Positions 6,743-59,342 of a stretch of 64,000 nucleotides of DNA are shown here, one piece after another. Source of the DNA: Moniliella sp. 'wahieum' (lineage: Eukaryota); the NCBI GenBank assembly GCA_003971905.1, contig RSEE01000013.1, positions 62,001 to 126,000 on the forward strand. Reading direction: 5' to 3'. A program made the translations under genes and the position numbers. The notes below the pieces were generated by a model. It ran no database searches. It saw nothing but the letters and a program-made list of their open reading frames with translations, and had not been told where the DNA came from. How positions within the stretch are numbered: position 1 is the first letter of the stretch; each line of letters starts with the position of its first letter.

Positions 6743-8841
6743 TTAGAGAAGAAGTCAAGCACCTTCTTCCACCAGGGAACGAGGCGAGCCTCTTCGCGCT
6801 CGCTTCAAGTTGTTCGAGGGTAGGAGCTTCGCGGCGGCCGGTATCAATGTCAATGTCCTCCTGCTTGACCCAGGAGTGAAGCCACCAGCGTCGGGGCCCG
6901 TACCAGACGGCACGTTGCCCAGGTACTTGACGTGCCATGGCGAGCGGAAGACCGCGTCCCAGTCCATCTCGCCAAACACGAGGAAGGCAATCACCACGGG
7001 CACGGCGAGGTAGGCTTGGAAGAAGGTCACCGGCGCTCCGAGTCCGTGTCGGCATCGGCACCGATCGGGGCAATGGCAATGATCGCTTGGAATACCAGCA
7101 CGGCAAAGTTGATCACAATCCCGTACACTGCCCCGGCAATCCCGACGGGCGAACGCCAGGGAATCAGTTCGACTGGCCGGCCGGCAGCCTTCCAGGCAGC
7201 ACGGAAGCGGATGTGGCAAATGCAAATGGTACCTAGAGCGAGCGAGAAAAAGAGGGAAGAATGCAACGTTAGTTAGGAGGCAAGGGTAATGCAGGGTAGG
7301 GCAGGAGCCGAACGAGGACAAGTAAAGAAACATACCCCACGAGAAGATGACGGCGAGACCACTGAGTGCCAAGAGCCAGTTGAAGACGTTACCGGAGCTA
7401 GTCGAGTAAACGAGGAAGGCGAGGAAGCCAAAGGCCAGTGTGACAGCCACCCGGGCATAGGGCGACCTTCGCGGTCAATGTAGGCGAACCAACGGGGAGC
7501 CTGACCGTTTTGGGCGGGGCGACGAGGGTACGAGAAGACCGTACACACTCGTGTGGCCACCGACAGGGACGAGATGAGAATGACGCGTTGACAATCGAGG
7601 GCAAGGCGTGGATTTTGGCGTGCTTGATGACGAGGACAAAAGGAGAACTGTTGGGATCGTTGCTGCTCGACCCGCTGGTCAGGGCAGGATCGTTGGGACG
7701 GATGTTGAGAGTGATAATAAAGAGCGAGCCAACGTAGAAGAGCATGATCCGCATGAAGATCTGGCGCGAAGCTTTGGGGACTGCCTTGCGAGGGTTGATC
7801 GTCTCGGCCGCGGTGATACCAATCATCTCCGTGCCAGAGAAAACTGAAGGCGGCACTGACCAGAACGGAGCAGAATCCCTTGAAGCCATTGAGGAACGCA
7901 TCGCCATGGTGCCAGTACTGCAAGCCAACCGTCGTGTGGTTAGGGGCCCCGCCGGCAGTAATCACAATGCCAGCCACGATGAAACCAAGGGTCATGCTAA
8001 AAAAATCCGTGGGTCAGTACCAGGCTCGCTGACGACAAAACAACGGTACATACAGAATCTTCAGTACTGAGCCAAACACTTCAAAGTCGGCGTAACCGCG
8101 AACGCCAAAGATGTTGATCACGGCAATGACAACCCAGCAAATGATCACCCAGACACCAGGGGATACGTGTTGGTTCGGATCCCAGAACCCAATAATGATG
8201 GTCGCTGCCACCAATTCGAGGGGCAAGGTGACGAACCATTGCATCCAGTCTGTGCAGAGGCAGAGGTTAGTCGATTGTCGAAGGGTAGATACCATGGGAG
8301 ACAGGGGGTGCAGAAATACGAACAGTTCCAACCCATGGCGAAACCCCAGGCGGGCGAGATGAAGCGGGTGGAGTAGGTGGAGAAGGAGCCAGAAACAGGG
8401 AAAATAACCGCCAATTCACCGAGGCACATGACGACACAGTAGAGCATGGAACCAATCAAGCAGTAGTCGATAATCAAAAATCCCGGGCCACCGCTGGCGT
8501 ACAACCGTGCCACCCAATGTAGAGACCGGTACCGATGCTACCGCCAAAGGCGATCATCTGAATGTGGAACTGGCTCAGCTTGCGCTGAAGTCCCTCGGGG
8601 GGTTGGAGGTGATTTCCTGGATGGAGGAGGTGCCGTCCAAGTCATCGTCTTCGCGGCCATAAGGGGAGTGGGCGCTGTCAATAAACGAAGTCTTCTCGAG
8701 TGCTTGTTCGGTGGGCGAAGCCTTGGCCATGTCGGGGTAGTTGGCCGGCTGGGCCTGCGCGGCCGCCGACTCGGGCGTGTCGACGAGCGGGGCCGGGTGC
8801 AGCTTAAAGCCGTCGAGCCAGTAGCGGATGGCACTGGCCAT
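6743..8841 (-). CDS. amino-acid permease (APC/YAT family, GAP1-like)
   Basis: GELAVIFPVSGSFSTYSTRFISPAWGFAMGWN, GVRGYADFE, GFKGFCSVLVSAAF(S)GTE, AETINPRKAVPKA, SSPFV and VFNWLLALSGL. Several introns (about 8250-8320, 7997-8048, 7233-7335) and frameshifts; the C-terminus is probably PWWKKVLDFF. Confidence 0.92.
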
Positions 8842-12226: not shown

Positions 12227-12848
12227 GGCAGCCACTGAAATGAAAGTTGAAACTGGCCGCGGGAGGCGGGAGGCGGGACGCTGGAGATTGGAAATTGCAA
12301 CTTGGCCAGGACAAGCGACTCGCCCGATGGAGGGAGTGTCTGCGCAATGATTAAGCACCCAATCGATCCCGCAGCTGGGCAAGGAATGGTTAATGCATGC
12401 TTGGATGGCCTGAGCCGGGCAAGGGTGGGCGCAGCCAAGCTGGCGTCACACACTAGCCACAGTCCCTGGCCCCGTTTCACGCGCGCGTCCCGCAGCCTGC
12501 TGGACCGCCTGACTGGGACGGTGCGCGGCGCGGCCTTGGCTGATGCTGAGTACTCGACTGAGTCTGAGCGCCGAGCAACTGCGTACTGCGTGGCGTGGCG
12601 TGTGGTGGGCGATGCATGATGCCACAGGGTCGGTGATGGTGCTGCGCAGGCCCGCCTGGCGCCACTGTTGCGCAGGAGGCTGACGCAGCTGACGTAACCT
12701 CTGCGCTGGCGGCCTCCTTCAGACAGCTTCACCTCAAACCCGCCGTTCAGCTCTTGCAACCACCGCCATTCCAGCGCCGTCAGTTACGAGCCGCTCCCTC
12801 CAAGTTGTTTTTTTCGGGTGATTCCCCCCCCCCCCCCCCACACACGCC

Positions 12849-31809: not shown

Positions 31810-33645
31810 TGGTAGCCCCCTCCTGTCTAAGCCCCATCGCACTGGTATATATGTTGACAGAGCGAAGCAGACGAAGCACGCGAAGGCTGCGAAGGCGCTA
31901 AGAATATCATCCGATAGCACTTCCTCGTATAGTAATGTCACACAGGTCGGAAGTGACCTTGCTGCCCCACAGCGCTGGGGGTGCTGCGGTCTTCAGCGTA
32001 CAACGCCAGCAAATCTCACCAGCGGTTCGGTGTGGTCAAACCAGCTAATCTCCAGCGGTTGGGAGTGGTCGAAGAGAGTACCGGACCCACCATAGGATGG
32101 CCAGCTCGCACGCCGGAAGGGGTGGGTGGGGGGAACTAGAAGTCATGGAACGCCTGCTCCCACTCCAGCCCCGCTCGAAGATTGGTTGCTACTTGAGGTC
32201 GAAGAGGTTATTCGGAAGCGTGTGGCGCAGGCGGCACGTGACGCGTGACGTGAATAGGAAGGGGGGATAGGTGAAGCTGTGGTGCGTGGCGTTATGAAAT
32301 TTGAAGGATCATCGATCAAGCTTCAACTGACGCGTGGTGTACACTGCATGGTGCTTGAAGCTTGAAGCTTGAAGCTTGATCGATGATCGATGACGCGATG
32401 ACGTGTGCATGTGAGCGCCTGAGCCTGAGCCGCGTTGAGGTGATGCGTGATACATGATGCACAGGCCTTCTCGTACTCACCAGTTACTAGTTACTCACCA
32501 AGCGTACAGGGCGCTGACAGCGCTGACAGGCGGTGAGGCATGGGTGTCGATGACATGTTGACAAGGCGCTGGCCCAGGAGGGTGCACGTTGCAGTCGACG
32601 GAAGCGACGAGGGCGCTGCCCGCGTTTTGGGCGGTCTGGCTGGGGTGGCCTGGGGTGGCCGCGTGTGGCTGGCGGCCAGAAGAGAACGACGCCGTGCTCA
32701 GCCTGAGCTATGTATGCGAGACTCATACTACCGCCCACAAGGCCAGTCGCTAGCCCCCAGTCAGCGCTCAGCGCCTTTGTGCAATTGCTTGCAAGAACGC
32801 GATGCATGACCATGCACGCATGACGCGGTTTTGATTGGATTTGCACTTTCTTTTCTTCTTATCGACTATCGATTATCGCCCTTTTGGCCAAGCCAGGCCA
32901 GCCGCGCATGCTCAAGCGGACGCCGTGTTCGGCCGCGCGGGGCGCGGAGCCTCAGCACGGACAGTCACCGGTGCAAATGAACAGAGCCAGTGGTCTGTAC
33001 CATGCACAAGAAAGAAGGCCGCTGGAGCGCGCTGACTTGTGTGTTGGCCTACATCGAGTGGACGAGCCAGGTGCCGGATGGGCCGTGCTGTTTCTTGCTT
33101 TGCCCGCTTTTCGCCGGGGCGTAGCGAGGAGTGAGAAGTGGCATAGTGATAAGGCAAAGCACCCCCATACCCGGCCCTCTTGCATTCGCGGGACACCATG
33201 AAGCATGGCTCTGCTTCAATCAGAGCCGCTCCTACTAGGTAGCTCCTCGAATTGAAGCTTGAGGCTCGAGAAATCGTACGCACTTACTTCAAAGGGCGAA
33301 TGAAACTTCAGAACATGGCCCACAGGCCTCGGGCCCATAGTTCATTTTGGGGGAGCACGGCGCCAGTGCTGGGCCAGTGTAGTTCGCAGGAAGCACTGGG
33401 CCAGTGTATGCGCCGTGTCAGTTTCGCCCCGAGCAGAGCGGAGCACGGACGGAGAGATTGGCGAGAAAGCCAGAGGCCACAGAACGACAGAGTGTACTCC
33501 CAGGCCGCCTCACCCCCCCCCCGAGTGTATAAGAAGGCTGGGCCGACACTTATCTCTTCGCCATGTCAAGCGTCCGCACCGCCCTTCTTCGCTCGACGAT
33601 CCGTGCTGTGCCTGTTCCCCCCGTGTCCTGCCTGCTGCACGTGCC

Positions 33646-35413: not shown

Positions 35414-36205
35414 CGCGGTATAGAAGTGCAAAAGTACATAAAACCTCACGCGTTAAAAACAAGTACACGCAGTTTTACCCCACAAACGTAAGGCCAGAAG
35501 TTGCAACAGAGGGCAACCCGACAACGCGTGGGCATGGCCCGATTGGGACCACGGCCTGTGCGTTCTGGATCTACTTGGCGCAATGGAGTCGGCCCTAGTC
35601 CTCACATCATTTGATCTTCAAGCTGGTTAGGCTAGTCAAGTGAGGCCGGCCAGGCAATGCATTACTACTCGTTTATTCTACTGTTTGGATTCGTGTGTCT
35701 TAAAAAACGAGAAGCGAGTAGCTCTCAGTGGCCCCCCACGGTTCTTACAGTACGCCTGCTGACACCGGTCAATGGTCACTTTGAGCAAGGACCATTTTAT
35801 CTGTACGATGAGTAGCCCTTAGCACCATCGACCGTGATCCATCAACCAACGCCAGATCGCAGTGCAGGTGCCAGCCAGCATCATCTCCGCTTACCCCACA
35901 GATCCCCCATCCATACGGCCTCCCGTACTCCTCACATGCCACAGTGGCATGGCAAACTACTTCTCGCGATCAGTGCACTGAACACTCCCGAATAGACGCG
36001 CGTAAAGGAATACATTACGGCACAATTGGGTCCGTTCGCGACCCGCCGGAGAGGTTGAGAAAAGGGTTCGTAGCCAATCAAGTCGTAAGGGAGCCAAGTG
36101 ATGCAATTTAGTTGTTGGCAAACATTGAGGAGAGAGAGCGAGAGATTAGATTCCAGCATCTGTCGCCGACACTTCGGCGCAGGGGAGAGGGTTGGTATTA
36201 CAACG

Positions 36206-37918
36206 CTAGACACTGTACCGGAATCAGGGTTGGACCGATCGGTCAAGTTGAGGACTCGTGGTTTTTAGTTGGTGGCGTGTATGTGCCGTTGGCAATCGCT
36301 TCCTCCTTGGCCCGGTCGCGTTTGCGGTTCCCGGACAAAGAGGTACCACATCAGTGCAAAGTCCAGAGCACAGATGAAATAGATGATGGCAATGGCGATC
36401 TTGGCAGGCAGGTAACGGGGAGCCGTGTTGTGTGTCATGATCTGAGGCGAGATGATGTTCTGGGTAGACGTGGGGAGATGCAAATTAAGATGTGAGATGA
36501 AAAGTTAGTCAATCGGTCGACAGGAAAAGAACAGAGAAGCCACACGTACGCCGATGGTGTAGGCCACAGTCTGGATGGCTGAAACCGTAATTTCTTACTC
36601 GCTCCTCCAACGTTGGACGAGGTAAGTCCCAAGATGGGACCCATCCCAGAGGAATGGAACCCGTAGGAAAAATCCAATCAGTGCTGGCACTTTGCCCGTC
36701 GTGGCCATCATGACCGCCCCTGCAAAGCCAGGAATGTGACCGACAATGCACCAGAAAACCGCTTGTTTGTCCTGACCCGAGCCAGCTGAGCCCAATCAGC
36801 ACAACCACTTCTACTGCGCCCAGCGGTGTCACGAGAATCAACGACTGGTTCGCTGTATCCGAGGCCCATGACAAGCGTGGTGCCAAACGAGGTGGCAAGA
36901 GAGTTGGGGATGTTGGCGGCAAACGTCCAAAACGAATAGGTCCACGTGAACGGATCCCGAAGCGCTTCGCGGCACTGAGCCCAGTCAAAGTGCCGGGATC
37001 CAATCCCTTGTTCGTTGCTGCGCAGGCGCTCAATGTGAATCGCCTTCTCCCGGTCGGTGAGGAACCAAGCATCGGCGGGCGAGTTGGGTAGCAGCATGTA
37101 AAACATAACCCCAAACAAGGCTGCCATAATACCAAACACGATAAAGCAAATCTGCCAACCGCGAAGGGTTGCGTGCGGGTCCGATCCCACATGGGTTGCA
37201 ATCCCATACGCAATCGCACCCCCCAAGATCTGGGATAGACCACAGGTAGCGAACCAAAGGCCAACACGGAACGCCTGCTCACGACGAGTGTACCATTGGC
37301 TGGTATACACCACCCATGCAGGCACCACTGTAGCTTCCGTGAGGCCAAGGAAGAAACGTGCGGCAAGCAAGCCACCATAGGACTTGACTCCCGCTTGTGC
37401 CGCCACAATCACGCCCCAAAGGATCACATTGATGAGACGTATGGCCGAAGCGGAAAGTATTGCATCAGACGGATGGTGGGGAACTCACCCACAGCTTGTC
37501 CAACAAAGAAGAGTGTGGCCACCACGTTAAAGTGGTCTCCCACCGCCAAACTGGGAATGGACTTTTTGATCCCCAGCGCAGCGGCGTACGAGATGGAGCT
37601 CTTATCCAAGTACTGGGTAAAGTAGATGATCAGCAACATGGGAAGCACATGTAAATCCACTTTGCGCACAAGCCGGCGCTTTTCTTCGGCCGTCACTTCC
37701 CCCAGCGGACCGACGCGGGCGAGGACTTGGAGCGCGTCATCTGCATGAGAGTTGATAGACTCTTCAGATTCAGTCGCGACTGGCGCGCTGCCGTCGTACT
37801 TCAAGTCATTAGCCTCTTCGCTGTGGTTGTCAACCAAGCTGTGCGGCAAGTCTGGCACCCCGGCTGCTGCACCTTCAACGTCAATCTTCTCCTTTTCAGA
37901 GGGAGGCGAAGCGGCCAT
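36206..37918 (-). CDS. MFS transporter, allantoate permease (DAL5-like, anion:cation symporter family)
   Basis: RLVRKVDLHVLP, QYLDKSSISYA, ARFFLGLTEA, QWYTRREQAFR, LPNSPADAWFLT, IISPQ...APRY and C-terminal TDRSNPxFRY. Intron at about 36455-36535; frameshifts present. Confidence 0.92.
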
Positions 37919-38137
37919 TCTTTTCTGCGAATGGTGCGCGGCGGGGGGGGGATATGGTGGTCGCTGGAGAGGTGGTATACAGGACAGGGAAATATATATA
38001 TGCAACTTTTTCTGGACCTGTTCAAACGATGTGCCAATGTGACATGCGCAAATGTTGGATTGACGTGCTCGGCATGCTCTCAATGTGGGGGGAGTCTTGG
38101 CGGCAGATTTTTTTAGCCGCCAATTCGAGCACTACCA

Positions 38138-38410
38138 AGGGATCTAATCGATCTAATCCAAGATCCTCGATCCACACCCTTCCATGCCCCGCAAGCCTGA
38201 GACCCTGAGACGCCACTGCTTTACTGCCTCTCAGATCTCATGCATCACGACCCAGATGCCGGCTGGTCAGGTACTGGGGGCTGTGACTCCGTACTCGGTG
38301 GCTGAGGGAGGACTCACAGATACTCAGGTTGAGAGTACACTTGAGTACCTTGAGTAGCCAGACGGTGTACCGACAACCGGTGTGGCTCAGGCACACGCAT
38401 ATGGGCAAAG
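38138..38410 (-). repeat. upstream segment of the MFS gene, source copy of the inverted repeat at 45910-46195
   Basis: Its reverse complement aligns with 45910-46195 (e.g. GGCATGGAAGGGTGTGGATCGAGGA, CTGAGTATCTGTGAGTCC), with many substitutions and short indels. Confidence 0.9.
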
Positions 38411-39904
38411 TCACCGATGCGGACCAGGCCTGCCCAGGCCCGAGACCGGGTCCCGCCATAGATTGCCTGAGGTGTTCGTGTGCCACAGGCCATGGGGGGG
38501 AAGTTGACTAGTGACTAGTGACTAGCTGACTGCCCCCTGATTAAGGAGGTAGGGGCAGGGCAGTGAACGTTGAACTCGTGAACCAGTGAGCGTTCAAGTT
38601 GAACTCAACGTTGAACTCAGTGGACGGGCAGGCTACTGGGCGTTAGAGTAAAACTTCCGGCGGCACCGGTAGGCGCACCCGCCCATCGGATGGGGTGTGG
38701 TGACCGGTGATACGGCGTAGTGTCGGGTTCCATGTTCGACGTTGATGCTAGCACGCCATACGTCCATGGATGTTGGTCTTCTGCATGGTTGCACGGTCGT
38801 GTGCCTGGTCGATGATCGATGATCAATGTTAATGATCGATGATCCGCTTGCCTTGGCGATTTCAAGTTGAAATTCCGACGAGGCAGATGTGCGGAAGAAA
38901 TTTCTTCGGCCAAGTAGCTGCTCCACACGCTCCGCTTGCCATTGGTCTTGAATAGCAAGCTGCCGCACTTCCTCGAGACTTGCGTGTTGGGCGCTGGAGC
39001 GTCAGGGGCCATGCACATGCATCGTGCGAGTTGTCCAAGCTGGTCTCTCAGATGCCCCCAGCCTCAGCGACTAGTGAGGCACGCAATGAGATGAAGAGAG
39101 AAGGAGATTGGTCTCTGATTGAACTTATTACCCATCCGCATTATCGCAACACTCATCAGTGTTGCTCTCCGTACGGTCAGCATGGCCCATTAGTCACTAG
39201 TCACTAGTCACTAGTAGTCATACAGCTCATCTCTGCAGACATCTTCGCCCGCTTGCTTCTCCTGTCCTACCGTGCAAGGTATTGGCCGTGCATGCCATCT
39301 GAATCGCCCCTAGGCCCGGATGCAAGGAAGCATGTGCGGCGACCCGCTCCCCCGCTGCTGGCTGCTACGCAACCGCGGCCAAAGTACCGGCCAGCCTGAC
39401 AAAAAACATGACGGACCTTCACGAATGACGAAGCGATGAAGGATGAAGTGGAGTCAAGATGCTAGCCTTCCCGTCGAAATGCGACAAGGAGCCCGCCAGG
39501 CAATAGTCCCCCTAGTCTACCGACGACGAGAGTACCCGGGGTGCTGGAGTACACAGGGGAAGAAAATACATTCTTCGGTCTCCAACGTGGATAACCAAAA
39601 CCGTTGGATTCATCATGCATCACGGAGACGTTTCGGTAGACCTGTTGCTGACCGTGACCGCTGAACGTGCAAAGCAAGCACAGGAGATGCTGGCGCGCCC
39701 TCAGCCTCATCCGCCAGCGGATCCGAGGGAGCCCAGGACATCGTTGCCACCTGGCTGGAATAGTGGACCGGACGTACTTTGAACCCCTCGGAGCCACGGC
39801 GCATTAACCTCAGATGCTTCCATCACGCCATGTGCTGACATGGGCGAGGTGACAGTAGCGGTTTCTAACGCGCACAGAGTCACGAGGAGGCCAACGGTAT
39901 TGCG

Positions 39905-40640
39905 CTAGAGGATCGGAAACAGAGGGATAGGACCACTCCGACTGGTTGGCCGCCGTTGCGACAGTAGGCTGCGCCTGGGTGTGGGGCAAGACCGCCCGCA
40001 GCGCTTGAGGGACATGGGCAGGGGGAGCTGGTGGTACAGGCATGGTAGCGGTAGGTAGGTGGTCAATGTAGGTACGAGCCAGAGCCAGGGACGAGGGCCC
40101 AGTGTAGCAAGCAAATTGGTAACCGTGCCCACAGAAAAGGGATATGCTGTGCTTCGGAGCTGGAGATGCGACCCCGGGGGCGAAGGTGTGGCCGCGCGAT
40201 TGGTTTCGGAGGACTCGATGGACGTTTGGTTGGCCATGGTGAGCAAAACACAAGTACAGTGAAAAGCCCCTACGAGCAGCAGAACCAAGGAGGAAAGGAC
40301 CATGTTGGTCAGTAGCACCCCCATCACAAACGACGTGGGGGCCCGCGGCGAATGCGCCCCGCGTCGAGAGCGACTTGGGCCAATAGATGGAGATTAAATG
40401 ACAGACAGACATCCGTCGCCAAGAGCAACCGAAGAAAGTCGCCGTGATTGCGCGCTCCAATACAACTGCCCAGCCAAGGGCAGTGACTAGTGATGCAAGC
40501 GATGGTCCATTCGCACAATGCACACCCCGCAAACACGGCGTGGCTGAGGAACAATATATGGTGCTCAGGTGCTCTGTCCGGCAGCGACGGAGATCCAAGC
40601 CGGGAGCCACGCCTGTTACGTAATCCTCCTGGGGCTCTCA
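39905..40640 (-). pseudogene. DHHC palmitoyltransferase (Pfa3-like) pseudogene
   Basis: Reconstructs to PDRA..HCRVCGVCIVRMDH[16-nt insertion]HCPWLGSCIGARNH, then two TM segments, a TTxE-like NQTSIE and a PaCCT-like PFSVG..NL..LG..WLWLVP. There is no room for TM1-2 before the divergent IVY1 start at 40809. Lesions are multi-base insertions and a deletion, unlike the single-base errors in other genes. Confidence 0.85.
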
Positions 40641-40808
40641 TTAAAACAATCAGCGGGCCAAGCGGCACGTGCTCTGATTAAAGGCGACTGCTTTTTGTGG
40701 GAGCACCTGCGCGTTGGCGGTGGCGGTGGCCGCGCCAGCAGCCTCGCATCCCTCTTCCCATCGCCCCTTGCGCCCCAACATTGGCTGGCATCGCGATCAC
40801 GCCGCAGC

Positions 40809-42509
40809 ATGCCGCCCAGCTACTCTGTCCGTTCCACAGGCTCGTCCTTGGCCGGCACCCACTTGAGCCCCCCGGGCTCCATCGCCACCACACGCCTCGC
40901 TCGACTTTCCCCATCGGCCCGACGTGCTAGTGACGCGCGCCGATCTGCGCAGCAGTGTATCCGCGTACGAGCAGCTGCTCGCTTCGGGAAAAGCATTGAC
41001 CAATGCCATGCTCGTCCTCAGCCGGGCTGCCGCGGACTTTGCTGCGTCGCTCGAGACGTGCCGCAAAGTCAAGGGCGCTCATGCCCAAGCGGAGAACTTG
41101 CAAGCCTGTGCTGGCCTCCACTTTCTCACCAGCAACTGGTCCCAAGTTCTTGCCGACTCGTTCTGGAAGGACTTTCAGATCCCTTTGCTCAGTGCCTTTG
41201 ACTCCTATCGCACCACCCACAACGAACGGCAGGTGGCCCACGATAAGCTTTTGGCCGACAAGTCGCGCGCGCTCAAGGAAACTGAGGCTCGTAACATTCG
41301 CAATGGCCTTGGCAGGCGTGGCCCAGGACGTGATCTCGCCTCCTTCAAGCTGCTCTTGGCAGAGATGCAGCAGCAAGTGGCAGAAATTGACCTGTACAAG
41401 GCCGAGTATTACATGAAGTGTTAGGTGCAGAGGAGGAAATGTGGGAATACATTCAAAGCAAGGTTTGTCCTCTTTGCTCTTTGCTCTTTGCTCTTTGCTC
41501 TCTGCTCTTTTCTCCTAACCTTCTCACCCATCCGACCTATTTTTTTTTTCTGCCTTAGATCTCATTGCTCTCGCGCTCGCAGGTGGAAATGTGGGAGCGT
41601 TTGTCGTCCAAGGCAAACTCTGATCCCGTCCTGGAACACGTATTGGCTTCCATCCCTGATCCTTTCCATTCATATGGGATTCCACCACCAGAGGACCAGA
41701 TCTTGAGTATCATCCCGCCTTCCAACCTCCTCTCTGGTTATACTGGGAGCCAAATGCCGCGCACCGCCCCACGTTCACCAGTGGCTCGACGAGTGGGAGT
41801 GCGGCGGCGGCGGCGGCGTTGGCCACTTCGGATGGGACTGCACAGACTCGGGGGGCCGTCCCTTCGCTCAAGGCTTCCGAAAACGCAAGCCCCCGGTTGC
41901 GAGAGAAGGCCTTGTTTGAGCCGTCGGGTTCGGAGGATAGTAGGACAAATGGGGACTATGCTATCCTCACCGCTCCTGCGGCCAACGAGTGGCACCCTCC
42001 GGCTCCTGAGCCCCACGAAGGGAAAAGGCGCGAGTCCAAAGGAAAGAAACGTGCTTCTTTGAACGACATGGACGGGGCGGAACCCCTCCCGGATGGCGAT
42101 CTCCGGCCGCTGAGCAGCATTAGCGAGGAAGCGGCGTACAATGGTTCTATGAGTGATACGGACGAAGAAGGGACTGGGTCCAAGTTCCCTGGTTCCCCTT
42201 CGGCCAGCGGGGATACGGCCCACGCACCCGACTCAGCTAATGCTGAATCGGGCAATACTGTCGTCCTCTTTGCTTTGTGAGACGAAGGAAACCAGCCCTG
42301 ATCCGCCAAAGATTGGTTCTGTTCTCGCTACCGGAGACGAGGATACGTCTGAAGGCCCTGGGGATCGTACCCCCGATACCGTCTCGGACGGCGGCGTGAC
42401 CGTTCGAGAGGATGAACGGGGGGATGATGCAGCCAGTGACGGGACGAGTGTGGACGTTCCACCGACGACTATGGCCGCTGAGGCAGAGACGAGTGTCGCC
42501 CAAGCCTAA
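40809..42509 (+). CDS. IVY1: Ivy1-like I-BAR/IMD phospholipid-binding protein
   Basis: LVTRADLRSSVSAYEQLL, AAADFAASLETC, AGLHFLTSN, LADSFWKDFQIPL and RDLASFK, followed by an acidic disordered tail. Intron 41463-41558; frameshifts present. Confidence 0.82.
41471..41510 (+). repeat. (TTTGCTC)n heptanucleotide repeat in the IVY1 intron
   Basis: Four perfect units plus one degenerate unit. Confidence 0.85.
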
Positions 42510-45668: not shown

Positions 45669-45879
45669 GCATCCATTGCTTGCCTCCTTTCCACCACCTT
45701 TTGGCTTCAATTGTCCCCTGACTCGTGCCATCTCGACTCCTCAACTAACTCGCTGCTTCCCTCTCTGCCCTAGCCTTGATTCCCGGTGGGTCTCTCTGCC
45801 ATAATAGGTGAGTACCAACGGAGCTTATTTCTTGGCCTCACGGAAGCTACAGTGGTGCCTGCATGGGTGGTGTATACCA
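45669..45879 (+). repeat. 211-bp direct repeat, copy 1
   Basis: Identical to 46332-46543 apart from one homopolymer C. About 160 bp of foreign sequence is fused to about 50 bp of MFS coding sequence. Confidence 0.95.
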
Positions 45880-45909: not shown

Positions 45910-46195
45910 CTGGTCTCGGGCCTGTGGGCAGGCCTGGATGTCATATACTTGTCCCAGAGCCACACTGGTCGCCGGTACTCAGTACTCAAGGTACTAACTC
46001 AATTGAGTGTACTCAATCTGAGTATCTGTGAGTCCGAGTCCTCCTTCAGCCACCGAGTACTGAGTCGCAGCCCTCACTACTGACCAGCCAGCATCTGGGC
46101 CAGGAGAGAGGCAGTAAAGCAGTGGCGTCTCAGGCTTGCAAGGCATGGAAGGGTGTGGATCGAGGACCTTGGATTAGATTGATTAGATGATCCCT
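45910..46195 (+). repeat. diverged inverted copy of the MFS upstream region 38138-38410
   Basis: Direct visual alignment to the reverse complement of 38138-38410. Confidence 0.9.
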
Positions 46196-46331
46196 AGGTG
46201 GTTGTGTCACCGGGATTACCGGCCGGCGGGGTTGGAGAGTAGCAGGTTTGTGTTCGGGCGGCCGATCCCCGCGGTGGGCGGATAGGGGGGGGGGTTGAAG
46301 CTTGGGGTTGATGCGATTGACGAGCTCAACG

Positions 46332-46543
46332 GCATCCATTGCTTGCCTCCTTTCCACCACCTTTTGGCTTCAATTGTCCCCTGACTCGTGCCATCTCGAC
46401 TCCTCAACTAACTCGCTGCTTCCCTCTCTGCCCCTAGCCTTGATTCCCGGTGGGTCTCTCTGCCATAATAGGTGAGTACCAACGGAGCTTATTTCTTGGC
46501 CTCACGGAAGCTACAGTGGTGCCTGCATGGGTGGTGTATACCA
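46332..46543 (+). repeat. 212-bp direct repeat, copy 2
   Basis: Matches 45669-45879 and runs on into the MFS duplicate. Confidence 0.95.
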
Positions 46544-47997
46544 GCCAATGGTACATCGTCGTGAGCAGGCGTTCCGTGTTGGCCTTTGGTTCGCTACCTG
46601 TGGTCTATCCCAGATCTTGGGGGGTGCGATTGCGTATGGGATTGCAACCCATGTGGAATCGGACCCGCACGCAACCCTTCGCGGTTGGCAGATTGCTTTA
46701 TCGTGTTTGGCATCATGGCAGCCTTGTTTGGGGTTATGTTTACATGCTGCTACCCAACTCGCCCGCCGATGCTTGGTTCCTCACCGACCGGGAGAAGGCG
46801 ATTCACATTGAGCGCCTGCGCAGCAACGAACAAGGGATTGGATCCGGCACTTTGACTGGGCTCAGTGCCGCGAAGCGCTTCGGGATCCGTTCACGTGGAC
46901 CTATTCGTTTTGGACGTTTGCCGCCCAGCTCTTGCCACCTCGTTTGGCACCACGCTTGTCATGGGCCTCGGATACACGGCGAACCAGTCGTTGATTCTCG
47001 TGACACCGCTGGGCGCAGTAGAAGTGGTTGTGCTGATTGGGCTCAGCTGGCTCGGGTCAAGGACAAACAAGCGGATTTTCTGGTGCATTGTCGGTCACAT
47101 TCCTGGCTTTGCAGGGGCGGTCATGATGGCCACGACGGGCAAAGTGCCGGCACTGATTGGATTTTTCCTAACGGGTGCCATTCCTCTGGGATGGGTCACC
47201 ATCTTGGGACTTACCTCGTCCATCGTGGAGGAGCGAGTAAGAAAATTACGGTTTCAGCCATCCAGACTGTGGCCTACACCATCGGCGTACGTGGGCTTCT
47301 CTGTTCTTTTCCTGTCGACCGATTGACTAACTTTTCATCTCACATCTTAATTTGCATCTCCCCACGTCTACCCAGAACATCATCTCGCCTCAGATCATGA
47401 CACACAGGCTCCCCGTTACCTGCCTGCAAGATCGCCATTGCCTCATCTATTTCATCTGTGCTCGGACTTTGCACTGATGTGGTACCTCTTTGTCCGGGAG
47501 AACCGCAAACGCGACCGGGCCAAGGAGGAAGCGATTGCCAACGGCACATACACGCCACCAACAAAGAACCACGAGTTCCTCAACTTTTGACCGACCGGTC
47601 CAACCCTGAGTTCCGGTTACAGTGTCTAGAGTTGTGTATTACCAACCCTCTCACCTGCGCCGAAATCTCCGCGACAGATCCTGAAGTCTAATCTCGCTCT
47701 CCCTCAGTGTGTGCGCCAACAACTAAACTGCATTATTTGGCTCCTTTACGACTTATTGATTGGCTACGAGCCCTTTTCTCACCTCTCCCGCGGGTCGCGA
47801 ACGGACCCATTTGTGCTGTGATGCATTCTTTACGCACGCCTATGGGAGTGTTTAGCATTGATCGCGAGAAACTGAGGTATGCCATGCCGCTGTGACACGT
47901 GAGGAGTGCGGGAGGCCGTATGGATGGGGGATCGTGGGGTAAACGGGGGTTGATTCTGGTTGGCACTGCACTGGGATCTGGTGTTGGTTGATGGATG
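46495..47997 (+). pseudogene. 5'-truncated inverted duplicate of the DAL5-like MFS gene plus its 3' flank
   Basis: Aligns to the reverse complement of about 35837-37349, starting at LGLTEATVV and retaining the intron. It lacks the first roughly 190 codons and has an approximately 10-nt deletion in AANIPNSL. Confidence 0.88.
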
Positions 47998-49236
47998 CTG
48001 GATGATGTTGATTGATGATGGATGGGGATAGTCGATAGTGGTGGTTGATGCATGATGTGTGCTGAGCGCTGAGGCTCGGCGTCCGCGCTGCGAGGGGGGA
48101 TTTGGAGTGACGGCATTCTCGACATAAATTGCCGAGAACGAGGAAGCGGGCACGGAGACAGTCGGTGGACCGCACGTTGCAACACTGTCCCAGCCCTGCG
48201 CCGGCCTGTGCCGGCGCATTCAAGTTGGAAAGAGGGCCGCGGCTCGCTTTGCAGGCGCAGCGGCGGTGACAGCACCGCCGCGTTGCGCTTATAAGGGTGC
48301 CGGATCGGCGCTTGAAAATCAGCGTTCAGCCGAAGTGTGAGGACCGCTGCTGCGCGCCACTCGGCACACGCCATGCACCTTGCACCATGCATCATGCATC
48401 ATGCTTCAATCTTCATCTGCCCTTGGCCCGCAGCCATCTGATGCGGTGAACATGACGGGTGACCGTCACTTGTGATGTGGGGCTTTTTTTTTTTTCTTCT
48501 TTCTCGTTTTTATAGCAGCACAGGGCCTTAGGATACTACCTGTGGGTAACCAAGGGCTACGCATCGTTGCGCGTTATTCATTGTCGAATCTCCACGCGCA
48601 CGTCCCTCACGCATCACGCCGTATGCACCCTCCTGCTGCTGCCACGGTGCGACGGAGCACGCGCTACTGACTAGCTAAGCTCATCAGCGCACATCAGCGC
48701 TCAGCGCGCCCGTCACGATAGTGACGATCAGAGCTTGTTCACCGTATGGCAAATGTTGATTTTGGCATGGCGTTTTTGGGCGTCCCCGAGCTCCCCGCCT
48801 GCCGTCTCCGCTGGGCCTTTCAGTTTCCACCTGGCGCACGCGTGATGCGTGACACCACACGCGCTCCCGGCTGCTCTCGGCCACCCGCCGCCTGCCGGAT
48901 CGGCGAGGAGAGACAGCAAATTGTGCGCACGCACCAAGCGCTCCCGCGCTGGCACAGCAGCCGTGCCCTGCTGTGCGCCCAACACGGCGACACACTCGGG
49001 ACGGTGGTTGTTGCTAAGAACGCTGGGCCTGTCTGTCCCAGCAGGAACATCGCTCGCACACACTCGCATCTGCTGCCCCGCATTTTTTTTCTGCACCTTG
49101 CTCGTGCACCCTCCGATATTCACACTTCTGCTCCGCTTCCTACATGCCCCGCCTGCTCCCTTTTAAGCGCCTGCTCTTCCCACCGACCAGGCAGACTACC
49201 CATCTCCTTCTTTCTCCATCCGCCCTCTTTCCCGCC

Positions 49237-50367: not shown

Positions 50368-50871
50368 CCCTCACCTCACCCCTTCTCCACCTTTTTCTAT
50401 AATCCCACCTGCCCCCCCCCCCCCCCCCCGCAACCTATACAGTCCCTTTATCCCTCTTTGTACTCTATACCAAATCTCTCTCGATTCCTGTCCCTCTCCA
50501 GCAAAAGCGCCTGCACTCTCTAGCTGCTTCTCCCACCCAGAATCCTTAACAATCTCACGCGCTTTGCCACTATGGCTGCAGTAAACCAGGCTGAATTTGA
50601 CTGTCAGATGAAGCCGTCACGGTCGAAACGGGGTGCGTACCCTCCAGCTCTAGCGGCCCTGGGGTAGTACACTGTCCTTTTGTGCAAGTGCTACTTCAAT
50701 TGGCTTCACCCCCTTTCGAGCCCATCACATTAACCTTACGGTGCCGACCTATCTTTCTCTTTTCATCTCATACTGATGAACTTGTCTGTTCCGTTGGTCC
50801 ACTGGGGCACAATTGACTTGCAAACAGGATACATGTGTCCGTCCATCTTGGGTGGCGATAGGACAAAAAAT

Positions 50872-53656: not shown

Positions 53657-55341
53657 GCCTTTGGCCGGGCGCTGGGCGCTGTCGCGTGCTGCAGGCGTGC
53701 GGCAGGCGCGCGGCAGCAGCGCGGCGGCACATGCCTGCATCCCGAACATCCCACACGGGCCGCTCTGGCCTGGCGCATCATCGACACTGCCTCTGTGCCG
53801 CTGGTGTTCCTCGTCTGCAATCACAGATTCCAGACTTCTGACGTGCGAGGCTCTGACCATCGATCATCGATCATCATCACTAGCATCACTGGTCACCCGT
53901 CACACCTTCGGATTGCCCCCACCAATGAGTGCTGGTGCTGAGCGGCTAAAGCGCTGAATTTGCTTTTGAGACATGCGATCTGTGACATGTGACATGTGGT
54001 TACTAGGTTACTGCCTAGTGGCTAGTGGCTAGTGGCTACATCACCCACGCGCTGCCATCGGGAGCGGTTGGTTGAGCTGGTTGTGTCCACGGGTATCCAG
54101 TTTCCGACTTGTGTTTCTCTTCTGTCGCTATTTGAGGGCACCCCATTCCCATACAGTCGCTAGCCAAGCAATTACTCATCATGCGGCACAGCAGGCAGCT
54201 CCAGGCGGCCACCCACATCCCACAGACAGTAGCTTTTGCCACAGCGCATTCTAACAGCAGATGGCTGCTCTCCATCCACATTGCTCGGGGATACGGAGCG
54301 GTAAGAGGAAGGTAACCGGTCATTAAAGACTAGCAACCCGGAACCCACTGCCCCTCTTCCGCCACACTGCCAAGGTCTGCAAGCCCGAACCAGGGGATAG
54401 AGTCCGATAGCCACTCTGTGGTGCATCGGTAGCCTGCGACACCGCCACGCCATTGCCACGCCCTGCTCCACATGAAGCGCCACACACTGTGCCTTATGCA
54501 CGCGATGCCCTGCGATGCCTTGCGATGCCTCGCCGCCCATTCCCGCCCATTCCGCCTGCCTCTTGATGTTCCACATTCAATGAGGCTTCACACCCTCGCC
54601 CCCTGCCACGCCCACCCCTGCAGCCCCCATTAGCCACAATGGAATCCCACCGCCCCCAGCACAAGCTGATCCAGGGGCGTACAACCCTTTCAGGGCGTTT
54701 GCAATAGTCCGCCGGCACCTGCATGTTGCTTTCCGCACAGCCTTTGGGGTTCTAATCCATCCATCAGGCACTAGCTCGTTTCCCCCGCCATTGTCATGTG
54801 CGACAGTGTTATAGACTACCAACGGCACCTGTCTGACTGAGTAGTAGGGCGTGTGAAAACCGATTCGCCAAGTTGCCGTTGGGAAAGGGAGGGAGACCAA
54901 GGTCCTGTCAGAGGCGGGAGGAAAGGCAAGATCGTTCGTGGGAGGAAACAGAAAGCATCGGGCAGAGAACAGAAGCAAAAGGAAAGGGAAGAGCGAGAGA
55001 CACATGAGCCAGAATTGGAAACTGGAGCGAGCTTAGTCCTTCGGTGACAAAAGGTTGGCTGCCCTTCCGTTGGCACTGGCCTTCACATTGGCCGCAGCCA
55101 GGTGAAATATCACACTACATGATGAACATGTATCGCTATGCCGAACCCGCTATGTCTATGCTCAAGCCCTCAAGCCCGACTGACTACTCTCAATGCCGCG
55201 TCAAGCTTCAAGGCGCTCAACCATGCGCTGCTCACATTGTCTTCTTCTTTTGACGTTTAGTAGCCTGATGGTACTGGGCTGGCCTTTGTGGCGCCAAATC
55301 GTTCTCATCAATTCTCGGATTTACCCTATCTCGTCGTCGGT

Positions 55342-57837: not shown

Positions 57838-59342
57838 CTACTGGAGCTTCAGCCCAGCGGCCTGCCAGGTCTCCAGCACAGACTCCCGCAGACGCAACAG
57901 ACCCTTCTCGATCTGGTCGAGCGGGACGAGGGAGAAGGAGAGGCGGGCGTAGGGGCTAGAGTTCACGTTGGGCAAGAAGGCGTAGCCAGGCACGCCAGCA
58001 CCCCCTTGTCGCGCGCAACCTTCTCAATCATGGTGTTCGAGTCGCCTTCGGGCGCGGCGGCGGTGGCAGGAAGACGGAACTTGATGAAAAAGAACATGCC
58101 GGCATTGGGCTCGACCCACTCAGCCACGGGCACTTGCTTACCCCCATTGCTGCCCATTTTTCGAGCGCAGCAGAGAAGACGTTGCGCCGGTCGAGGTAGA
58201 ACTGGGCTACCTTGTCGCAGTGAACCAGGAAGCCTTCCAGGCCCCACTTGGCCAGGATAGCCTGCGCAACAACCTGGGCAGTGTACGATGGCTGCAATTG
58301 GTAGCAAGCAGTCACGCCATCAATCGCCTCAATCAGCTTGGCAGGACCAGTGGCAATGCCAATCCGGAAACCGGCCGCCATGATCTTACTGAGCGAGTCA
58401 AAGCGCAGACGCGGCCGTCGCCCCACGTCTCAGCACCCTCCTGCTCCAGGGCAAGGTAGCTCTTGGGACGAGGACGGGTGAGGGGGTCCCCACCGGTTCT
58501 CAAAGGAGAGGAAGTAATAAGGGTCGTCCTCGAAGAGGATCAGTCCAAACTCGCGAATGACAGCGAGAACCTCGCGCTTGCGCTCCTCATCCGCACTTGC
58601 TCCACTTGGGTTGCCGCCGGTAGGAATCGAGTACAGCACCTTGGGGAATGTAAGGTGCTTGGTGCTCTCGGCCTCATGCCAGTTTTCCAGTGTCGAGCGC
58701 AGAGCCTTGGCCGACAAGCCGCGAGAGTCGGTCGGCACACTGTGCACCTTGTTGCCAAGCGTACTAGCCGCACCCGTGGCACCACTGCAGGAGAGATAGT
58801 GCACAATCAAGTCAGCGAACGCTCACGCGAATAGGGACAGAGACAGACGAGTACATACGGGAAAGTGGGGCCCTCAACAAGCACAGTGTCGTTACGATCA
58901 GTAAGAGCCATGAATGCCTTGCTGATCAGATCCTGGGAGCCGTTGCCGGTCATGGTGGACCAAGGGGTATGGAAGCCAGGGTTCTTGGGGTCAAAATCGG
59001 GCTTGCCATGGAGCTTCTGTTGAAAGTCGTGGAGAATCTGGACAAAGGGGGGCATGCCACCCGACATGCCGTATTGCAAGCTGGCTTGAGGTCGTCGGTG
59101 GGGATTTCGACAGCCTCCGCAGCACCCGTGTGAGGGTTGACAACGTCGACGGTCATGCCACGTACTGGGAACGCCTCGGGGTTGGGCTTGCCGGCCAGGA
59201 AGGAGACCATGTCGGGCACAAACTCGTATGGGAACAGGCCGCGGATGGCGGGCTTGGGCCAGGCCTTCATGGGCGCCGAGTAGTAGTCGACATAGTTGAG
59301 GTGGGTAGCAGGCGCAGGCTTGTGGGACGAAGCGGCGGGCAT
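57838..59342 (-). CDS. class I aromatic / 2-aminoadipate aminotransferase (Aro8-like)
   Basis: IRGLFP...MVSFLAGKPNP, QYG, GSQDL, VEGPT, LYSIPTGGNPSG, EDDPYYFL, PLP lysine RFDSLSKIMAAGFRIG, AGMF and YARLSFS. Intron at about 58790-58857. Confidence 0.92.

Follow-up and report, generated by a model that had tools for sequence, protein, structure and literature searches.

Footprint-like short duplications in a PFA4-type palmitoyltransferase pseudogene and across a 64-kb window of Moniliella sp. 'wahieum'

We analyzed a stretch of 64,000 nucleotides (nt) from the genome of Moniliella sp. 'wahieum' (assembly GCA_003971905.1, contig RSEE01000013.1, positions 62,001 to 126,000), called the window below; coordinates are positions within it. 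On the minus strand lies a decayed gene for a DHHC palmitoyltransferase, in which 16 extra nt interrupt the codons of the DHHC motif. A reading of the letters alone, made earlier and called here the original prediction, took these 16 nt for two stacked insertions, both centred on the same TCA. Junctions of the same build recur throughout the window, and we think that they are probably excision footprints of a cut-and-paste transposon.

The host gene

The gene was identified by protein homology. A search of 1.84 billion representative proteins with its C-terminal frame (39908–40336, minus strand) returned 14 proteins at E ≤ 0.001. The best match, P0001, is 632 amino acids (aa) long and 64% identical over 97 residues (E 2.9e-25). 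A second search gave P0015, which has 745 aa and is 77% identical to P0001. Both are known solely from assembled read archives. In many Basidiomycota (Rhizoctonia, Kalmanozyma, Sporisorium, Pholiota and others), the best named relatives of P0001, at 37–45% identity, carry the annotation PFA4; PFA3 names appear only far down the list. PFA4 and PFA3 are here the annotations of the source records; by these names of its relatives the gene is PFA4-type, not Pfa3-type as first labelled.

39634..40590, minus strand: 5'-truncated, multiply frameshifted PFA4-type DHHC palmitoyltransferase pseudogene, corresponding to about residues 245–630 of P0001 (tblastn, three-frame reading, Pfam and names of relatives).

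When the whole window was compared with the two proteins by tblastn, matches were confined to residues ~245–630 of P0001 and ~292–706 of P0015, in five differently framed pieces from 40537 to 39634. For residues 1–244 of P0001 and 1–291 of P0015 the whole window gave no hit at E ≤ 1, so that the half carrying transmembrane segments (TM) 1 and 2 is missing. The copy is homologous to PFA4-type DHHC palmitoyltransferases (PF01529) over the DHHC cysteine-rich domain (DHHC-CRD), TM3–TM4 and the C-terminal region; unlike them, it is truncated and frameshifted. A metagenome scan guided by P0001 gave 80 loci, mostly at ~24–44% identity and none of them a close relative; the top identity, 64%, belongs to one short segment of ~50 residues.

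Besides the 16-nt site, the reading frame shifts at least five more times. Reading three frames against P0001 shows ~17 extra nt at ~40537–40556 in place of the Cys codon between HH and RVC. Just upstream is a 6–8-nt duplication, GAGCACC(T)GAGCACC (within 40537–40580, minus strand). The ~17-nt block could not be decomposed into simple footprints. Relative to P0001 there follow a −1 change in a C-run near 40335, a −1/+1 pair at ~40268–40240, a +1/+2 pair at ~40190–40140, and more frame changes toward the 3' end. Part of the 1-nt changes may be consensus errors.

Because the N-terminal ~244 residues are gone and the frame changes at least five further times, the copy is, judged by its sequence, a 5'-truncated pseudogene that should not function as a palmitoyltransferase. 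The original prediction implied a gene that was otherwise intact, which this copy is not; given the truncation and the many frameshifts, footprints alone did not inactivate a working gene. A divergent plus-strand gene with no Pfam match (40867–42300; its first exon of 185 aa is open) starts about 280 nt from the truncated end, and the truncation point may be a rearrangement breakpoint.

Sixteen extra bases in the DHHC codons

Read directly on the minus strand from 40510 to 40482, the site is ATG GAC CATCGCT TG CATCACT AG TCACT, followed by GCCCTTGG. After ATG GAC it divides into five parts.

40498..40504, minus strand: copy 1 of the 7-mer, CATCGCT, with one A>G difference from CATCACT (direct reading).
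40496..40497, minus strand: 2-nt spacer TG, the reverse complement of the CA that opens copy 2, resembling P-nucleotides (direct reading).
40489..40495, minus strand: copy 2 of the 7-mer, CATCACT, the ancestral CAT CAC T of the DHHC codons (reading and orthologue comparison).
40487..40488, minus strand: 2-nt spacer AG, the reverse complement of the CT that closes copy 2 (direct reading).
40482..40486, minus strand: partial copy 3, TCACT, running on into GCCCTTGG, which encodes (H)CPW (by reading; this is chain 40484 of the window census).

Twelve of the 16 extra nt repeat adjacent sequence, and the other four form two dinucleotides, both of them reverse complements of the bases beside them. 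The 16 nt are extra because P0001 and P0015 run straight through the motif: their excision restores MDHHCPW, and in alignment neither orthologue has any added sequence there. Two orthologues with an unbroken MDHHCPW thus support both the claimed excess and the claim that the insertion is derived. More widely, DHHCPW is present in 127 of 133 homologues; the remaining 6 gave no match to the search pattern and were not inspected.

The insertion splits the motif as DH|HC and interrupts the DHHC-CRD. The frame upstream of it reads RVCGVCIVRMDH and a different frame downstream reads (ITS)HCPWLGSCIGARNHGDFLRL. A stop-to-stop open reading frame (ORF) of 117 aa (40324–40677) consequently mixes frames at the site and holds an apparent 'ITSHCPW'; its Pfam DHHC match is partial (E 7.6e-8, profile positions 22–72 of 133), and a homologue search with it found nothing. 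Reading the frames across the site bears out the earlier view that this 'TSHC' variant is a shifted-frame artefact.

With up to one mismatch allowed, the window holds TCACTAGTCACT 8 times; 0.19 occurrences are expected, and none of 100 shuffles reached 8. An exact-flank search for alleles in metagenome contigs gave 0 matches. The choice of the 7-mer CA-TCA-CT, centred on TCA, as the duplicated target is backed by the window-wide TNA pattern described below and by a duplicate of the same 7-mer at 53875. It is plausible that the site was hit repeatedly, as had also been proposed; chains of 3 to 6 units elsewhere in the window would fit. The earlier account of the site was essentially right, and the transposon origin itself we infer.

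A TNA-centred period-7 pattern across the window

The junction at the DHHC site belongs to a class that is strongly enriched in the window. Its core is a 10-mer in which two copies of TNA flank a 4-nt palindrome, the filler. We found 53 such junctions in 44 chains, with 2.04 chains expected and at most 6 in any of 50 shuffles. The dinucleotide outside a chain equals the adjacent half of the 4-nt filler in 40 of the 44, where about 12% would agree by chance. Among all junctions of the form XNY + palindrome + XNY, TNA accounts for 53 of 141 despite being the rarest class (3.7%). The central base of TNA is C or G in 45 junctions and A or T in 8, and 14 different 4-nt fillers occur.

Tandem repetition shows the same preference. 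Period-7 tandem runs number 150, compared with ~55 in dinucleotide shuffles, and period 7 is the commonest in Tandem Repeats Finder (TRF) output (29 of 113 rows). Units that are interrupted palindromes make up 50 of the period-7 runs (6.6 expected, maximum 11 in 20 shuffles); no such excess was shown in the other periods from 5 to 11. Among arrays with at least two full units, 21 of 38 are perfect interrupted palindromes, and 20 of these 21 are centred on TNA, with units such as CATCATG, AGTCACT, GATCATC, CTTCAAG, GCTCAGC and TGTCACA. When 5-nt repeats separated by a 2-nt spacer were counted, the spacer was the reverse complement of adjacent bases in 22 cases against 4.9 expected; such spacers are also enriched in the 6+1, 5+3 and 7+2 classes.

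Four places illustrate the pattern, two of them with the AGTCACT unit that the +7 event at the DHHC site would produce.

39191..39215, plus strand: array (TAGTCAC)x3.6, with unit AGTCACT as in the +7 event (TRF, array and chain census).
38505..38531, plus strand: array (TGACTAG)x3.7, the AGTCACT unit on the other strand (TRF and array census).
53858..53903, plus strand: chain GATCATC GATCATC ... CATCACT AG CATCACT GG TCACC CG TCAC (repeat and array census).
32309..32397, plus strand: two chains of 3 and 6 TNA units, TCA-TCGA-TCA-AGCT-TCA and (TGA-AGCT)x3-TGA-TCGA-TGA-TCGA-TGA (chain census and TRF).

At 53875, within the third of these, CATCACT-AG-CATCACT is a +9-type duplicate of the 7-mer of the DHHC site. 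Chains cluster in intergenic sequence at 32237–32878, 38162–39215, 48046–48707 and 53858–54038. In Pfam-matched stretches, by rough arithmetic ~12% of the window, about 5 of the 44 chains would be expected, but only 1 is present, that of the pseudogene. Purging from working genes, a bias of insertion, or the two together would fit this scarcity. A separate, non-palindromic period-7 array, (CTCTTTG)x6.4 at 41470–41514, lies inside the neighbouring plus-strand gene region and breaks the TNA footprint rule.

Extent of the duplication

The agreement of flank and filler in 40 of 44 chains bears on what is copied. It means that TNAxy at the least is copied and that y'x', which is xy reverse-complemented, is added. 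The duplication therefore extends beyond TNA, which excludes a 3-bp (base pair) TNA duplication carrying remnants of inverted element ends. Two +9 cases show a full 7-mer duplicated: the first event at the DHHC site, and CATCACT-AG-CATCACT at 53875.

We favour, with moderate confidence, a 7-bp duplication of the form abTNAcd, because abTNAcd is symmetric on N and because the two +9 cases display it. Reading the duplication as 5 bp would place the P-type bases always at the xy end, an asymmetric arrangement.

Proposed mechanism

We propose, with a probability of about 0.6, that the 16 nt are two successive footprints of a hAT-like cut-and-paste element with a 7-bp TNA-centred target duplication and repair through hairpinned flanks. 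The steps that follow are all inferred, and only their end products are observed. On inserting, the element would duplicate abTNAcd (here CA-TCA-CT). Excision would leave both donor flanks hairpinned, as in hAT, Transib and V(D)J-type reactions. Nicking of the hairpins ~2 nt off the tip would give 4-nt palindromic 3' overhangs, cdd'c' on one side and b'a'ab on the other. If one overhang were kept and filled while the other was clipped, the product would be abTNAcd-d'c'-TNAcd (+7) or its mirror image. This would be the dominant class, and it would include the CATCACT-AG-TCACT event at the DHHC site. If one flank were instead opened at its tip, both 7-mers would be kept around a 2-nt palindromic spacer (+9), giving CATCACT-TG-CATCACT at the DHHC site, with the A>G change arising later.

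The +7 footprint would be a perfect interrupted palindrome (AGT-C-ACT) and hence again a good target. If so, scars would stack into arrays, and chains of 3 to 6 units would arise, because the product of one round would be a preferred target for another. In the dead PFA4-type copy nothing would have removed the scars, and the invariant DHHC codons would show the state before insertion. Hairpinned flanks, as in Hermes, and complement-type footprints, by the logic of Ac and Tam3, are known hAT behaviour. A variant with a nick offset by 2 nt (in Hermes the offset is 1 nt) was worked out by hand and rejected, because the product that it predicts, CATCA-AGTG-TCACT, was not seen.

We searched the window for the element. 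With duplications of 3, 5, 7, 8 or 9 bp, only weak, chance-like candidates with inverted ends were found in the window. One candidate of 523 bp (58377–58913) was rejected, as it sits in apparent coding sequence.

Several observations weigh against the proposal. Some concern the source: the 64-kb window yielded no element that combines inverted ends with a 7-bp duplication, and Pfam detected no transposase domain in 125 ORFs of at least 140 aa, a scan that left out 13 ORFs of 140–219 aa, mostly overlapping mapped genes. A family without a resident copy in the window would hardly be expected to leave so dense a record, about 0.7 canonical scars per kb. The target nnTNAnn also differs from the canonical hAT target, which is nTnnnnAn, 8 bp. 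Others concern the products. The predicted +5 TNA class is only mildly enriched (7 against 1.95 expected), the predicted +11 product fits 0 of 8 period-11 cases, and the outermost flanks fail to account for some fillers, among them AGCT in GATCAAGCTTCAAC at 32309. A TNAxy 5-bp duplication with 2 P-nucleotides suits the +7 class equally well, and the case for 7 bp is made by symmetry and only two +9 cases of one 7-mer. Finally, the assembly may hold indel errors, for example a +1 in the T-run of a permease gene and many 1-nt indels between 99%-identical copies.

Alternative explanations

The footprints could instead come from break repair without a transposon. An endogenous nuclease, or a recurrent staggered break, would act at nnTNAnn, followed by fill-in and by snap-back synthesis that adds 2 reverse-complement bases. 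The missing element and transposase and the high scar density would then be no surprise. The two copies of a major facilitator superfamily (MFS) gene duplicate in the window also differ by small palindromic or tandem insertions of other sizes (8 nt duplicated as CCTGAGAC, a CAATTGAG palindrome and a duplicated 6-nt GGACTC). We nevertheless consider it unlikely. We know of no endogenous nuclease of such specificity, and dimeric transposases classically leave just such a mark: a weakly palindromic target of odd length, cut at a fixed stagger. Duplications of 7 bp are moreover documented for the basidiomycete hAT7 and Kyakuja elements (PMC12730594).

Replication slippage offers another route, in which short palindromic 7-mers would expand as minisatellites and the DHHC site would be a chance member. 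Arrays of 3 to 6 identical units do exist, as do non-palindromic period-7 arrays such as the one at 41470. Slippage can lengthen an array, but it cannot make the first copy. At the DHHC site, where the ancestor is known, the new AG and TG copy nothing adjacent in direct orientation, and slippage leaves both the TNA specificity and the 40/44 flank rule unexplained. We judge it improbable.

Two further explanations are less probable still. The constant TNA and the always palindromic filler could suggest a PIF/Harbinger or CACTA-type element with a 3-bp TNA duplication that leaves 2 nt per inverted end as filler; CATG fillers would presumably fit CACTA ends. This is largely refuted by the match of the filler half to the outer flank dinucleotide in 40 of 44 chains, against ~12% by chance. 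It would also demand many families to supply 14 fillers, and the +9 events duplicate the whole 7-mer. An assembly or sequencing artefact at the DHHC site, for which the likely consensus indels in the window speak (the permease T-run; the 1-nt indels between near-identical duplicates), has similarly little chance of being right: the 16-nt insert is structured, lies outside any homopolymer and shares its anatomy with 43 other loci in unique sequence. A functional feature, be it a tiny intron, a programmed frameshift or a variant active site, is the least likely explanation: nothing but the open 'TSHC' frame suggests it, GT..AG ends are missing, 16 nt is far below the size of fungal introns, and the state of the gene, with its N-terminal half gone and five or more additional frame changes, contradicts it.

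Relation to known systems

Excision footprints of hAT elements (Ac/Ds, Tam3, Hermes) are the closest parallel to the scars. Like them, the scars largely keep both target copies, and their junction bases are the reverse complement of the neighbouring flank. Ac footprints typically have 1 nt replaced, compared with 2 nt here. The same 2-nt palindromic, flank-templated addition occurs at V(D)J coding joints and with the hairpinned flanks of Transib/RAG-type reactions. Transib makes 5-bp duplications; a 5-bp reading of the scars needs P-nucleotides at one end only and is thus asymmetric.

Two groups of basidiomycete transposons share the 7-bp length. According to PMC12730594, duplications of 7 bp are produced by hAT7 families of Pucciniales, which group with Ac and Tam3, and by Kyakuja elements of Agaricomycotina. 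The hAT7 families thus resemble the scars in duplication length and in having a basidiomycete host, but they are described from Pucciniales, whereas the window looks Ustilaginomycotina-like: for an aldehyde dehydrogenase exon in it, the best named relatives are Ustilaginomycotina (68–69% identity), with others at 77–82%. The host probably belongs to a thinly sampled part of that group. Kyakuja (KDZ) elements likewise share the 7-bp duplication and a basidiomycete host; they have CA..TG ends without inverted repeats (PMC12730594), and none was found in the window. The inspected parts of the PMC12730594 supplement hold consensus sequences and gave no hAT7 or Kyakuja target examples.

A possible precedent for the scars themselves is Ustilago maydis, whose genome holds numerous 10-bp repeats 'suggested to be footprints of past TE activities' (PMC4081816; TE, transposable element). 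As that source presents them, these repeats are numerous, short and intergenic, lie in a Ustilaginomycotina genome poor in transposable elements, and are read as transposon scars. The TNA + 4 nt + TNA core is also 10 bp long. The text of PMC4081816 gives no sequence for the 10-bp motif, and a search of its supplementary files, 4 of 15 excepted, gave 0 occurrences; a literature search for literal motif strings returned only primers and similar. Unlike U. maydis, the window is intron-rich, and its PFA4 relatives are 38–43% identical to those of Ustilaginaceae. Our verdict is that hAT-like excision footprints are a known kind of trace, of which the scars here would be a new example.

Implications

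The DHHC site has a value beyond its gene. The invariant DHHC codons provide a built-in 'before' state and so a base-by-base view of the event, which is rare for footprints in non-coding DNA. Together, the pseudogene and the census yield the target nnTNAnn, a likely duplication length of 7 bp, a junction rule of 2 reverse-complement nt, and evidence of repeated hits.

A broader picture is possible, and we offer it tentatively. A hairpin-forming transposon family with a 7-bp duplication may have swept through a Ustilaginomycotina-like genome and then been purged, leaving roughly one scar per kb; the scars would seed arrays, and the U. maydis 10-bp repeats would be the same thing (TNA-xyy'x'-TNA). 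If this is true, footprints rather than elements would be a major builder of intergenic and promoter sequence, and the pseudogene would supply the mechanism and the target of the U. maydis repeats. Confirmation in the whole genome would take the form of few or no resident DNA transposons and yet thousands of scars, concentrated intergenically; it would give a testable explanation for the short repeats of smut-fungus genomes. The wider pattern merits such a whole-genome follow-up. For annotation there is a warning: in this lineage, arrays of short palindromic 7-mers, and active sites that look 'variant', like TSHC, would be scars, not features.

Assembly quality and other features of the window

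An amino-acid permease gene on the minus strand shifts frame at AGTTTTCTCTGGC (~7840–7850), where there is no room for an intron, and is otherwise good. An extra T in the T-run near 7845 would explain the change, be it a genuine frameshift or a consensus error in the homopolymer. Errors do not pervade the window, for the aldehyde dehydrogenase gene and a 717-aa ORF show none.

A large inverted duplication (35837–38400 and 45950–47996) carries the MFS transporter gene region, and the DHHC pseudogene lies between its arms. The core of the arms is ~99% identical, with more than 20 single-base indels and few substitutions. Natural decay would not ordinarily leave such an excess of indels, and a poor repeat consensus may be the cause. 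The arms also differ by larger changes (38196–38211; 45975–45988; ~46010–46030). An exact 8-nt tandem duplication, CCTGAGAC, is present in arm a only; arm b alone has a footprint-type insert, TGAGT-AC-TGAGT, and a palindromic insert (CTCAATTGAG). These are further before-and-after cases of small duplicating or palindromic insertions. Within the second arm region, a 211-nt direct repeat (45669–45879 and 46332–46543) is 100% identical and spaced by 663–664 nt, which suggests further local rearrangement.

The window is also rich in poly-G/C: 8-mers of G or C number 54 against 6.4 expected, and long homopolymers include C16 at 12824–12839 and C18 at 50412–50429.

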